Origin: Okamejei kenojei | Lineage: Eukaryota | NCBI GenBank assembly: GCA_035221665.1 | Contig: CM069148.1 | Span: 11,656,001-11,720,000, forward strand | Length of the DNA: 64,000 nt | Reading direction: 5' to 3' | Part shown: positions 38,198-61,250 of the stretch, one piece after another | How positions within the stretch are numbered: the first letter of the stretch is position 1 | Layout: each line of letters opens with the position of its first letter | The notes under the pieces: model-generated | Told to the model about the DNA's origin: nothing | The model's database searches: none | The model's input: the letters and a program-made list of their open reading frames with translations, nothing else | Position numbers and translations under genes: made by a program

Positions 38198-41100
38198 GTG
38201 AGATGCAACACTTTTAAAGAGGCTACTTTTCAGTTGTGTCTATTATAGACAGTGATTGGCACTTATGTCATTAAATAAATGTGACATGTATTACATGTGT
38301 TCCAGTACCCAGTGGAGGCCAGAATACTTTCACTGTGATCTCTGAGCCAACAATAATGATGCTAATTGTATCTGTCTTTCAGTGTAAGATGTCATGTGCC
38401 TAATCTTTCTGTGACACACTGTGAAATGTTACAGCAATTCACACACTTGGGAATGCTGTGAATGCAAATATGTCATTCACGAAAAATGACAGACCACCCT
38501 CTTCCTTTCCTTCTCAGCTACTTTTTAAGCTACAGGATGTATATGGGTCTTTTAAAGTACCATTTCAAAATCTCTATACCATGTTTCAAACAGTGAAATA
38601 ATTCACTAAATAATATGATGAGCAAAACCTGTTAAAAGTGAATAGCTAGTGAAGCGGAATAAACAGTTAACATTTGCGGTTTACATTGAATTTGCTTGAG
38701 GAGCAATATCCTGAATCCCAAAATCAAATTAGTACTTTTTAAATTGTTTTGGTAGTTTAAACAATAAATTGGTGAAGAATTGGTTTAGTTGAAGGATTGG
38801 TAATTCTAAGTCCAAATCGATATTAGAAGAACAGCTACTTTGATTTTTATCATGAAGCTGTCTCAGCTAAATTACTGAGTAATCAAATCCATCCTGTGTC
38901 TGTTTAATATATTCAATGTCTACAAATCACTTATAAGCCCAGACATATTTCTTCATCCCCCAACCTTGCTTTATTTCCTAAAAATTCAGTTTAATAGCTG
39001 AGAAAACTTTTAACACTTTCAGTCATTCTGGGTACTGGCATCTAATTAGCATTCCCATTACATGGTTGTTTTGGTGGCAGAGATGCTGCAGCTGGAATGC
39101 TATTGTGCTCTATTCCTCTGTTTGGGGACAAACACTGCTGGGGAAGGAACGTGTGAAAAAGCCACACCATAGTGACTGAAAGAGGGAGGCAGTGTTTTCT
39201 GTAGGCTTCAAGCTGGGTAGCTGTCATTCATGGCCTCCGTACAGCTAAACAGATCAAAAAAGAGAAGACAGAACCACCTTTCAATTTAAAGTCTATTCCT
39301 GCCTTACTTCTATTTAATTTAGGCATTTTATTTTGTCTATATTTTCTTCAAATCAATCACATAAATGTTCCACCATGGTGGAAAGTACATTTTTGCCTCT
39401 TGAATGAGATGTGATCATATACATTTTGAATTAATAAAAGTATTCTGTGAAATGTACAACTGTTACTGATCATTGAATAGACATGCCATTCAACAGTGAT
39501 ACTGGGAAAGATCCCCTTGAGTGCTATAGTATGCCAGTTTCTCTGCAGGAGTATAACTCAACAGGTTCTGTACATTCACAGTCCATTCAATTGCTCGTAG
39601 AGCTTAATATGTCATTTTGGACTACACTGTAAAGTTTATTTCTTTATAAAATGTCAATGAAAATTGTGCTTTATACTTCTGTATTTCTAACACAATCTCA
39701 GAATGAGATTTTTTTTAATGCATGACAACATCATGTCTCGGTTTTATTTCTAAACTTGCCTTTCCTCCTTCAATTTACTGGGTCCGTACAATGCCCAATA
39801 ATTGTTGATCATCTGTTTGAGGTTTTTTTTGTAGTATCAAATTGTCTGCAACTCACGCTCTGTGTTGATGTTTGACTGTTCAAGCTTGGGAATGATAGAC
39901 ATTTTGTGTCAATGTGTTATGCTCGTTTATTCCTCATATTGATTTTTACCTCAAAACAATGATTTTTTTTGCAGCACTTAAGAGTACAATAGAACTAACT
40001 ATACAAAATAAAAGAGAAATAGGAGAAGTACTGGAGAATTTGTGTGCCAATTATTATGAAGTATCCAAGACAGAGGTTTATTTGTAATTAAAATTGGGAA
40101 GATTCTGATTATTTCTTGAAGACCAGGGTAATTCCACAAGGAGAGTGTTCTGAATTATATTAAATTATTCCCTTACAGCTATCTTCTGAAATGGTTTTAA
40201 TTTTTGAATAACTATGCACATCTAACACCAACCATAAAATGAGACACAATTGATATTTATTGAGATAGATCTCATTGAAGTGACAAAATATGGTTTAGTT
40301 TATTTGCAGTAAAATGGTAGATTTTACATATTAGGATTATAGCCATATGTAAAATGAACATAAAAAATATTATAACTTGGCTGATTAAAAATAACTTAAG
40401 AAAAAGTCGAGAATATTGTTTGCATCTGGATGGTGAACTTTCTAGCTTATCTATGTAAAATGCAGTTATGCCATGAAATCATTCCAAATATTTATTTATT
40501 AAAAAAAAAAATTATTTGAACAGGCCATATAATTTTAAAATATGAAGTCATATGTAATAATATATATTAATTAATAAAAATTAGATTTTGTATGTTTTTA
40601 TAAGTTTTTGAATATTATTAATTTCTCTCAATATATTACAATTTATAAATGTTCCTGCCATATATTAGATTATTAATTTTGGCTAATTTATATTCAACAT
40701 TTAAATTTTGTCACCAACTTTCACTATAAAAATATACAACCCGTACTTTCAACATTGGAAGTCTTATTTGGGGGAAACTTGTCAATTTTACTTTTTGTCT
40801 TTATTGAAGGCAAACCGTTTAACTCTAACAACATGAATTTAAATAAGTATTAAGTTTAATTTGTACAGAATGCTATACATTCTTAGGAAGAATTTGAAAA
40901 ATATTTACTTTTCTCTCTTACAATGCATTGTCAGTCTTACTGCAGCAAACTATTAGCATCATTAAAAGAAAATATAATAGTCTGGTGTTAAGATGTCTTG
41001 GAGCTTAGTCTTCACGGGCCATAGAACTGCTGCCTATAATCGGGACTGTTAATGGAACAATCTTTGTTAGACTTGTAAAAGCAGTTTGTGACTTTAACTA

Positions 41101-42815
41101 CAGTATTTGAGGGTGGTTGTTAGGAAGGTGGAAATTAAAATTTATTGATGCTAATTATTTATTTTTGCATATCGAGCTATCAAAGCCATTTATCATTCTG
41201 TTCTCATTTATTATTTTTAAGTGATGCAACAGCGCCTGACTTCAATGTCACGTTGAATTGTGATTAGAAATGCTGGAATGCAACATTGTACTGCAGCGTG
41301 ACCCCTCCTCTCCCCGCCCTGCCAGTACTCCTCCCCCACCTCACCCATCCCTGCTGTCTGGATACACATTTTATGCCCTTGAACATATTCAGTGAAGTTT
41401 CACGATTAAAATTATTTTGAGCAATGCCCTGGGATATTTTTACAATTCTACAGCTGCAGAGGTAGTGATAAAATCTATGTTTCTATGTTTCTTATCACTT
41501 CTGTGCAAGGAACAAGGAAGAAGTGAAATTACTCTCTGACTCAACAACTACGATTTCCAAGGAAGACTGGTACATATGACATTGTCCACTGACTAAACTT
41601 TGCTTGGCTGCACCTAGTGAAAATCTGCCAAAAATCCTACGTGATAAAATGCTTTTTAGAATGAGGAACCACAGGAATTATTGAGTTCCAAGTCAACTAG
41701 CCTGACTCTGATGTTATAGGAAGAGGAGAAAAATTTGGAAAGAACATTTAATAGTTCATCAAAAGAATAATATCAATGAAGAAAATTTTATATCATTTTT
41801 ATGTGCAGTACTATTTACGACACCCGTTCAGAAATTTAAACCTGAAGGAGTCTATCATATGTAAAGTGTTCAGGGACCTATTTTTAAGAGTTATGATTCG
41901 GTGGTATACAAATTATTCTTTGGAGATGACATTAAAAAATGTGTTAGGATTTTAATACACAATCAACCATGTTCATTTGACCCAGTGCTAAAATTCAACC
42001 CGAGACCTCATTAACATGATTAATGTCACCGGTCAATGCTAACTCCAAGTTTAGTGCACAATCAATGGGCCTGATTTCATGAATGGGGTGACATTAAGTG
42101 AAGCTATCTAGCACTGATTGAAAACGCCTGTTACAGGGGAATTGCTTTATGGCTGCAGCTGGTGTGCTAGTTATTTCAAGGGTTTAAGAGTTTGTTGGCA
42201 ATTCAGCTGCAAAGCGTTGAGATTGATTGTCTAAGAAAGTTGTTTAGGCTGAGGTTGATGAGGAGCTGAGAAAGGGAGAATCTTTTGTTTTTCATAGAAT
42301 GTCATGATTTCCTTCAGGCAAATAGTCAAACATTAGTGAGAGGAAGCACCAAAGAAGGTCAATGTCAGGAGTCAAATTCCCAAGACATTGTTCAATGTCC
42401 AAAAAACTAGTGATCTCATGGGCATGGCCAAGGTTGGTGCACCATCAATTATAGTAATACAGATAGTGCAGGAATAAGCAGCAGCGGAATGCTAAATGAA
42501 ACTTTGGTAGTATTTTCCTATTTGTATTTAATGAGGTGGAGATAATCTCTTGTTGCATTTAGTTATTATTTTGCCACATGTGGTACCAATGTTCCTGGCA
42601 TTTTATTAGTATATAAGAAACAAAATGTGCATTAAAGGCAGGTTAGGCTTTATTATAGACATTCTGAAGTCCAACAGACACAAGTTTATTCTGTCCAACG
42701 CATCCACATAAGACAACCTGGCAATTCCAGGTATTATAAAAACGAACATTCTCCAAATTACTTCTAATATGTTTGGAGACAAATATCTGCATGATATTCC
42801 AGATGTAGCCTTAAT

Positions 42816-42960
42816 TTTCTTTTTTCATATGGCGTGCACAGCCTAGTTGTAAGACAACTTGTTCTGTTTGATCTTCTGTTTGATCTTCTGGTTGTGCATG
42901 CCAGGTTGATTGCATTCGTCGAACAGAGTGGACCACGTGAAGGTTGCAATCTCCCATCCT
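42816..42960 (-). mobile_element. Short ribozyme-headed retroposon, copy B
   Basis: Perfect 12-bp TSD TGTAGCCTTAAT at 42804-42815 and 42961-42972; A/GAA-rich tail; homologous to 47060-47201 and 61129-61250. Confidence 0.92.
42908..42960 (-). ncRNA. HDV/CPEB3-like ribozyme fold, copy B
   Basis: AGGATGG GA GATTGCA ACC TTCACGT GGT CCACTCT G TTCGA C GAA TGCAATC: P1 with one mismatch, perfect 7-bp P2, P3 ACC/GGT, catalytic-position C at 42918. Confidence 0.8.
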
Positions 42961-43432
42961 TGTAGCCTTAATAATGCCTTATAATACAGAAGCATAACTT
43001 TAGTGGTATTCTGTTCCTTTTGTGCAGTTTATTCGCTGATCCTCATATCTTGATTAGCTGAATGCTCAAAAATGAGAAACACAAGGGTTTGCTAAATACC
43101 CGACTCCTCATACTGTTGCAATGCCCAGAATGTATAGCTTCTCTGCCTTGATGTTTCAGCATCCACTGAGCGCTTCCCTCTCAGAATTTTGTATGTCTCA
43201 ATGAGATCAGTTCACATTCTTCTAAACTTCAGTAAATTTAGACCATTCTTCTGCAATCTGTCCTCCTTGGCTTACACCCTCATTCTAGAGATAATTCGAC
43301 TGAATCTACATTCCATTGACTCTGGGGAAAGGATCCGTCCTTTGGTGTGGAGGCCAAATCTCCCCATCAAATTTCTATTTTAATGTTGTTCAGATTTTAC
43401 TGCATGCAAACACAGTTTACCCCATTACCAGA

Positions 43433-47059: not shown

Positions 47060-47113
47060 GGGGTGGGGGATTGCAACCTTCACGTGGTCCGCCCTGTTTC
47101 GACGAATGAAATC
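47060..47113 (+). ncRNA. HDV/CPEB3-like ribozyme fold, copy A
   Basis: P1 GGGGTGG(47060-66)/CCGCCCT(47089-95) with a leading G.U pair; P2 GATTGCA(47069-75)/TGAAATC(47107-13, one mismatch); P3 ACC/GGT; L3 TTCACGT; J4/2 C(47103)GAA. Confidence 0.82.
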
Positions 47114-47201
47114 AACCTGGCGTGCACAATCAAGTAAGATCAAATAGACCTAGTTGTCCTACAACTTTAGGCTGTGCACGCCATACGCAAGGAGAAGAAG
47201 A
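47060..47201 (+). mobile_element. Short ribozyme-headed retroposon, copy A
   Basis: TSD AGGTTAATTG at 47049-47058 and 47202-47211 (11 bp with one mismatch if the next base is counted); (GAA)n tail; it splits an HE1 SINE. Confidence 0.93.
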
Positions 47202-61128: not shown

Positions 61129-61250
61129 ACTTCTTCTTCTTGCATAAAGTTGTAAGTCAACTGATTATATTTGATCTCGTTTGTGGATGTCGGGTTGATT
61201 GCATTAGTCGAAACAAGGTGGACCACGTGAAGGTTGCAATCTCCCACTCC
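61129..61250 (-). mobile_element. Short ribozyme-headed retroposon, copy C (internal 3' deletion), inserted in the Rex1-type LINE
   Basis: Perfect 10-bp TSD AGCAGAGGCA at 61119-61128 and 61251-61260; tail GCAAGAAGAAGAAG. Confidence 0.9.
61197..61250 (-). ncRNA. HDV/CPEB3-like ribozyme fold, copy C
   Basis: GGAGTGG GA GATTGCA ACC TTCACGT GGT CCACCTT G TTTCGA C TAA TGCAATC: perfect P2 and P3, P1 with one mismatch, J4/2 CUAA with the C at 61207. Confidence 0.8.

Follow-up and report, generated by a model that had tools for sequence, protein, structure and literature searches.

A Short Retroposed Element within a DCDC1 Intron

The window analysed here, a contiguous skate sequence of 64 kb, contains six DCDC1-like exons on its plus strand (6442-38200), whose identity to the little skate protein is 82-100%. 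The last of them ends at 38200 and the next exon lies past the window end, positions 38201-64000 (+) being part of an intron of about 57 kb. The element considered here, hereafter copy B, is antisense to this host gene and runs from 42960 to 42816 on the minus strand, bracketed by two identical 12-mers. These form a target-site duplication (TSD) whose upstream copy (42961-42972) and downstream copy (42804-42815, both on the minus strand) are identical at 12/12 positions. The bases flanking the two copies differ, which makes 12 bp the full TSD length, and, for a fixed point, this 12-mer would recur by chance in the following 50 nt with a probability of about 6e-6. The upstream copy stops directly before 42960, the first base of the 7-nt P1 5' strand of a predicted ribozyme head. 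The DNA adjoining the element is single-copy, and the nearest repeat matches, short and weak, are found about 150-200 nt upstream and about 70 nt downstream. The preliminary description, in which a perfect 12-bp TSD abuts the element exactly at ribozyme position 1 in non-repetitive flank, is thus borne out, and the TSD together with the single-copy flanks supports its view of copy B as an independent retroposed insertion.

Beyond the head, the element consists of a body (42831-42902, minus strand), with a closing stem of about 10 bp around an A-rich stretch and a small hairpin (42845-42859), a terminal motif (42826-42831, minus strand), whose family form is matched by the final 6-7 bases in two families of Vingi-type LINEs, and a decayed (AAG)n tail (42816-42825, minus strand). 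A 12-bp duplication specific to this copy lies within the body (42862-42894, minus strand). The folding z-score of the body stem is -4.03 in copy B and -1.51 in another copy, L003.

Two further copies are present in the window. One (47060-47195, plus strand) is sense to DCDC1, lies inside another repeat and carries a P2 mismatch; the other (61142-61250, minus strand) is antisense to DCDC1 and lacks part of the 3' stem. As a random 200-kb genome sample contained no copy of the mini-element, the three copies in the window overstate its genome-wide density.

The site of copy B is occupied in all six related species compared (organisms B-G). Starting in the left flank, the contigs of organisms B, D and E cover 45-58 bases of the element, and that of organism C 29 bases, while contigs of organisms C, E and F cross the right flank into the head. 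In organism G, the flank adjoins 28 letters of the head, and the upstream TSD is affected by a short deletion. Flank divergence at the locus reaches about 6% among these species (34 other letters over about 560). The empty site, which had been proposed as a check, was seen in none of the six species, and no joint skipping the element was present among those listed. Since all of them carry copy B, the insertion is older than their split. Copy B is an old, mutated and otherwise ordinary, decayed member of its family.

The Head of Copy B Is Predicted to Be a Decayed, P4-Less HDV-Like Fold

The first 53 bases of copy B can be read, all on the minus strand, as the successive segments of an HDV-like ribozyme fold. 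The P1 5' strand (42954-42960) is followed by a 2-nt J1/2 (42952-42953), the P2 5' strand (42945-42951), a 3-bp P3 closed by the L3 loop TTCACGT (42932-42944), the P1 3' strand (42925-42931), J1/4 GT with a 4-nt loop in the place of P4 (42919-42924; the loop is of 5 nt in the family), J4/2 CGAA (42915-42918), with the predicted catalytic C at 42918, and the P2 3' strand (42908-42914). P2 pairs at 7/7 positions and P3 at 3/3, L3 is identical to the Rfam CPEB3 consensus, and a P1.1 of a single pair may form between J1/4 and C22 of L3. The perfect 7-bp P2 and the intact L3 and J4/2 of the preliminary description are therefore all found as claimed. Its P1, given as AGGATGG/CCACTCT, does start at 42960 but is a decayed form, with an A-U start, an A·C mismatch at position 4 and a G·U wobble; as it differs from the P1 of the family, it is not the working helix.

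Relative to the family majority, the P1 5' strand has changed from G to A at positions 1 and 4, and one C to T change in the 3' strand creates the G·U wobble. The same three differences separate copy B from its close relative L004, together with the loss of one loop base, the 12-nt duplication and a 2-nt deletion. The resulting A-U pair keeps a purine at position 1 and loses the wobble. With an HDV descriptor written for this analysis, which gave 0 matches in the Markov control (10 × 64 kb), copy B is matched only if one P1 mismatch is allowed. An Rfam search of the 64-kb window and of the element gave no ribozyme match on its head, and against the CPEB3 model RF00622 (gathering cut-off, 35 bits) it had no match at E up to 10. 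The z-score of nested folding, a procedure which cannot show a pseudoknot, is -2.29 for copy B and -0.75 and -1.08 for two other copies.

As a ribozyme, copy B is probably weak or dead, and it probably serves no function in the host; antisense to DCDC1 and with a broken P1, it probably now does nothing. Because its P1 was damaged after insertion, it would make a poor substrate for the in vitro cleavage assay suggested earlier, and an assay on this copy could be falsely negative.

Copy B Belongs to a Large Mini-Element Family

The family has a layout of about 135 nt, made up of a P4-less head of the HDV/CPEB3 type, a stem-loop body closed by a stem of about 10 bp, and an (AAG)n tail. A 22-mer from the 5' end (the head) has 9,563 exact matches in the genome and one from the 3' end 8,462, the reversed controls having 0. 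The exact 5' motif is also present in 45/91 copies that were selected on their 3' motif, an overlap which gives an estimate of about 19,000 copies. The 3'-motif sample was drawn from a list of 100 places, of which it comprises the first 90, all of them on contig C1, and the set of 85 aligned copies was obtained by leaving out one duplicate locus and 5 truncated copies. Copies diverge by about 7% from the family majority. Being dispersed, with a TSD that varies, a simple-repeat 3' tail and no ORF, the family is a non-autonomous non-LTR retroposon.

The family P1 is composed of G1·U, five G-C pairs and one U·G or U-A pair; G1·U is found in 66/85 copies and G4-C in 75/85. A 5-nt loop stands where P4 would be. 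The predicted catalytic C of J4/2, at family position 44, is present in 77/85 copies, and an A·C mismatch lies at the base of the P3 stem in 7/85. The strict HDV descriptor is passed by 35/90 copies and a relaxed form by 53/90, with 0 matches in the Markov controls, so that the family fits the nested double pseudoknot of HDV-like ribozymes (P1 of 6-7 bp, P2 of about 7 bp, P3 of 3 bp, L3 of 7 nt and P1.1). Two main subfamilies (L081-L170) are split at family positions 8, 45, 58, 61, 71, 123 and 127, and the variants that distinguish subfamilies fall at tolerant sites, namely J1/2 (A/G), the second base of J4/2 (G/T), the U·G or U-A pair of P1 and the hairpin loop. There is almost no covariation within the family (pair table of 85 copies). 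What supports the fold is the comparison between families: in the heads of LINEs and mini-elements, which are presumed to be homologous, the stems differ in sequence and yet pair.

The CpG of L3 (family positions 24-25), which lies in the word CACGTG, has decayed in 3/79 cases, compared with 52/245 for other CpGs (p=1e-4); genome-wide, the ratio is 7,695 to 6,843. Selection on source ribozymes was considered as a cause of this low decay and is unsupported, as the CpG that contains the catalytic C is changed in 10/31 cases, like other CpGs.

A second mini-family (L192-L195, L197 and L199, around 1500-1680) has a P4-less, CPEB3-like head that scores 38.5 bits on RF00622; it further comprises a closing stem and a hairpin, and it shares its terminal motif with another Vingi-type family. 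Homology between the bodies of the two mini-families was tried and is weak: across 16 pairs, 0 to 125 of 300 shuffles reached the observed score.

The 5' Ends of Copies Coincide with the First Base of P1

The preliminary description would have been contradicted by copies routinely extending 5' beyond P1 with shared sequence. Since reverse transcription starts at the 3' end, 5' ends were mapped in copies selected by their 3' motif. No such routine extension was found: positions 1-4 are reached by 86/91 copies. When the 66 copies with a TSD score of at least 9 are considered, the TSD ends at -1 to +2 of G1 in 53 and at -4 to +3 in 62, and in only one, a truncated copy, does it end further upstream. 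In controls with swapped flanks, such a score at an offset of -1 to +2 was reached in 1/300. TSD length varies from 8 to 15, with a mode of 11-12 (68 junctions).

Small departures from G1 are of two kinds. Offsets of +1 to +3 correspond to G microhomology, the next target base being G in 25/49 (p 3e-6), and offsets of -1 to -4 to 1-4 extra bases without common sequence. Furthermore, T stands directly before G1 in 43/85 copies (L081-L170), against a background of 28% (p 9e-6). Microhomology, the untemplated addition of A and a preference in nicking are possible sources of this T/G junction bias.

Upstream sequence is common to only one pair among 85 copies. In a set ranked by similarity, 7/29 copies do share upstream DNA, and a 5' extension was considered for them. 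It was rejected, as these copies also share their downstream DNA and their TSD, which indicates one nested insertion amplified together with a carrier repeat. Copies multiplied in this way, with both flanks and the TSD in common, are L005, L009, L010, L012, L015, L016, L029, L283 and L339.

Vingi-Type LINEs Are the Likely Partners

LINEs with related heads were reached by an RF00622 search of the genome, followed by protein searches from the endonuclease/RT remnants found in this way. The model is exceeded over its cut-off at 30 genome loci, two of which lead into such remnants. L171, L174, L176 and L196 (from position 1500 on) carry heads of 38-67 bits on the CPEB3 model, and it is those of L176 and L196 that lead into endonuclease/RT remnants. 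Overall, the sister heads score 38.5-66.8 bits, including 52.8 bits for the head of one LINE family, located upstream of endonuclease/RT remnants.

Several LINE families of 3.1-3.2 kb were recovered, each with a single APE and RT ORF (Pfam PF03372/PF14529 and PF00078) and no Pfam match to RNase H; relatives of about 1,000-1,050 aa carry the same domains. This is the compact architecture described for Vingi elements, with one ORF, APE and RT and no RNase H (PMC13708176). The LINE heads pass the same HDV descriptor with different P1, P2 and P3 sequences, and a check of four full-length LINE copies showed the TSD stopping at G1 in three of them and slightly upstream, by a few bases, in the other. 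In addition, the 5' end of Vingi-2_Gav, printed in the supplement of PMC5786205, belongs by eye to the type of the CPEB3-like heads of the skate. Vingi does not appear among the ribozyme-bearing clades listed in the main text of the same article. By their architecture and this one published 5' end, the partner LINEs are likely to be of Vingi type. Some LINE copies (L298, L302, L307, L323 and L324, near 1100-1500) have by eye inverted 5' segments, as would be expected from twin priming.

An (AAG)n tail closes every LINE 3' end seen. The seven terminal bases of one LINE family are identical to those of one main mini-element subfamily, and another shares its terminal six bases with the other main subfamily, which hints at partner switching. 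In a bipartite, internally deleted LINE derivative, both ends should correspond to a single autonomous LINE; in the mini-element, the 3' terminal 6-7 bases and the tail match a LINE, and its head matches a different family weakly: the closest LINE head aligns over only 28-35 nt of the core (E 0.04-0.05). No LINE with the exact head or body of the mini-element was present in 100 LINE loci, some of them overlapping, and the 70-nt body matched none of the LINEs seen. A pattern joining the head to an endonuclease gave 25 matches, about the number expected by chance, 23 of which continue as the mini-element and none as a parent LINE, and a search with a tail pattern gave 23 matches and no LINE. From sequence comparison, dependence of the mini-element on a Vingi-type LINE nevertheless appears likely.

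Proposed Mechanism and Alternative Explanations

Taken together, we consider it probable that copy B is an old insertion of a skate retroposon of about 135 nt, with a predicted P4-less HDV-like head, that was likely copied by a Vingi-type protein. A source copy would be transcribed, likely within a host transcript, and the head would then cut 5' of G1, releasing an RNA with a fixed and protected 5' end. This cleavage step is suggested by the fold, by the 5' ends at G1 and by the precedent of R2 and L1Tc. In HDV-like ribozymes, cleavage takes place at the first P1 nucleotide (PMC4908430), and in trypanosome elements the cut was placed at +1 by primer extension (PMC4035085). A mosquito ribozyme is slowed by very short J1/2 linkers (PMC4908430); the 2-nt J1/2 of the mini-element has the length found in the Rfam CPEB3 consensus. 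The Vingi APE-RT protein would nick the target and prime on the (AAG)n tail, as the tail, the terminal motif and the TSD size, common to mini-element and LINEs, lead us to infer. The cDNA could then be extended as far as G1 and joined to the target, in many cases by way of a G microhomology of 1-2 bases, within a TSD of 8-15 bp. Once inserted, the copy decays neutrally, as is observed.

The preliminary description went from the junction to an inserted RNA that was the 3' product of self-cleavage. However, the 5' boundary alone cannot separate self-cleavage from an internal promoter starting at +1: a Pr77-like promoter predicts the same boundary, which consequently does not establish that the template was a cleavage product. 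One alternative is thus that a Pol II internal promoter of the Pr77 type sets the 5' end, the fold being either inherited or a stable cap. The Pr77 of L1Tc is both promoter and ribozyme (PMC8256844; PMC3383444), the stability of the fold is one determinant of insertion efficiency for R2 templates (PMC11331408), and the low decay of the L3 CpG concerns an E-box-like word. A promoter alone, though, would not need a catalytic core, and G1·U, L3, the G of J1/4 and the C-N-N-A of J4/2 are kept in at least 6 head families whose stems differ. Such conservation favours real catalysis in the source elements, and we regard a promoter-only origin of the 5' end as improbable, the roles of promoter and ribozyme not being exclusive.

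The two remaining alternatives deny either the ribozyme or the partner. A chance likeness to an HDV ribozyme, produced by the G-rich start and the internal stems of what would be a plain Pol III SINE, would agree with the precise 5' ends that SINEs likewise show, with a sense strand free of T4 runs, with the lack of an Rfam ribozyme match on the head, and with a weak word at +37 of the element that by eye resembles a B box. It is hard to reconcile with the absence of chance descriptor matches in 640 kb of controls, with the agreement of L3, J1/4 and J4/2 with the Rfam CPEB3 consensus, and with a sister P4-less mini-family that lies over the RF00622 cut-off at 38.5 bits; moreover, neither the window nor the element has a tRNA, 5S or 7SL match in Rfam. 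We give this explanation hardly any credence. Mobilisation by a LINE of another clade, such as RTE or Ingi, with a coincidental match to Vingi ends, would fit the failure of the LINE loci and pattern searches to yield a direct parent, and these clades too make bipartite derivatives and carry ribozymes (PMC5786205). Against it, the (AAG)n tail and the terminal 6-7 bases are identical to those of two Vingi-type families, and TSD size, T/G junction bias and head class are the same as in Vingi-type LINEs, so that it seems very unlikely to us.

Significance and Comparison with Known Systems

If the heads cleave, the family would be a very compact natural retroposon, reduced to a ribozyme of about 54 nt, a short body and a tail, and would make P4-less HDV-like ribozymes available in large numbers from a vertebrate. 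Its natural variants, which number in the thousands and have sharp 5' junctions, allow ribozyme-defined template ends to be tested outside rDNA, a question that bears on Vingi-based gene-insertion tools. As the sister Vingi heads are nearly identical to the CPEB3 ribozyme, the origin of the mammalian ribozyme becomes testable as well. The human genome holds traces of Vingi (PMC5753468), which makes a Vingi origin of this ribozyme plausible. On balance, we lean slightly towards a wider view, in which vertebrate Vingi LINEs are routinely headed by HDV-like ribozymes, the skate retroposon, P4-less, promoter-free and of about 19,000 copies, has switched its partner LINE from one subfamily to the other, and the CPEB3 ribozyme is a domesticated Vingi 5' end. 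In our literature searches, no paper was listed that treats the mini-element family or derives the CPEB3 ribozyme from Vingi; the family may already have been named.

Ribozyme-headed, non-autonomous LINE derivatives (NARTc, RIME, SIDER and the R2 SIDEs) and bipartite derivatives of Vingi are already known. What differs here is the P4-less head, the amplification in a vertebrate and the likeness between Vingi and CPEB3. NARTc, RIME and SIDER, from the L1Tc/ingi clade of trypanosomatids, are likewise described as short, non-autonomous retroposons with an HDV-like head, a ribozyme that cuts 5' of +1 and an Ingi-group LINE as partner (PMC4035085). The skate element differs from them by its vertebrate host, its P4-less head, its (AAG)n tail, its cleavage, which is predicted, and its body, which matches no LINE seen. 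The R2 SIDEs of Drosophila likewise combine a ribozyme head with a 3' end recognised by a LINE, but are specific to rDNA, whereas the skate family is dispersed, with TSDs of 8-15 bp and a partner of APE type (PMC3414825). The non-autonomous derivatives of Vingi elements, for example of Vingi-1_EE, and bipartite LINEs likely have the partner clade in common with it, and their bipartite layout may be that of the skate element as well (PMC5786205).

As to the ribozyme itself, the minimal HDV-like and theta ribozymes are also devoid of P4, with a catalytic C in J4/2 and a cut at G1. Almost all of those reported come from gut phages, where they lie beside tRNAs: in a search which included human, mouse and protist genomes, nearly 99% were in Caudoviricetes (PMC10879173). 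The skate P4-less heads, in contrast, belong to a vertebrate retroposon of about 1e4 copies, and, while the theta ribozyme adjoins a phage tRNA, copy B lies in a skate intron with no tRNA match nearby in Rfam. Finally, the mini-element head resembles the mammalian CPEB3 ribozyme (RF00622) in L3 (UUCACGU), J1/4 (GU), J4/2 (CGAA), its 7-bp P2 and its 2-nt J1/2, and differs from it in the sequences of P1, P2 and P3, in the lack of P4 and of any RF00622 match.
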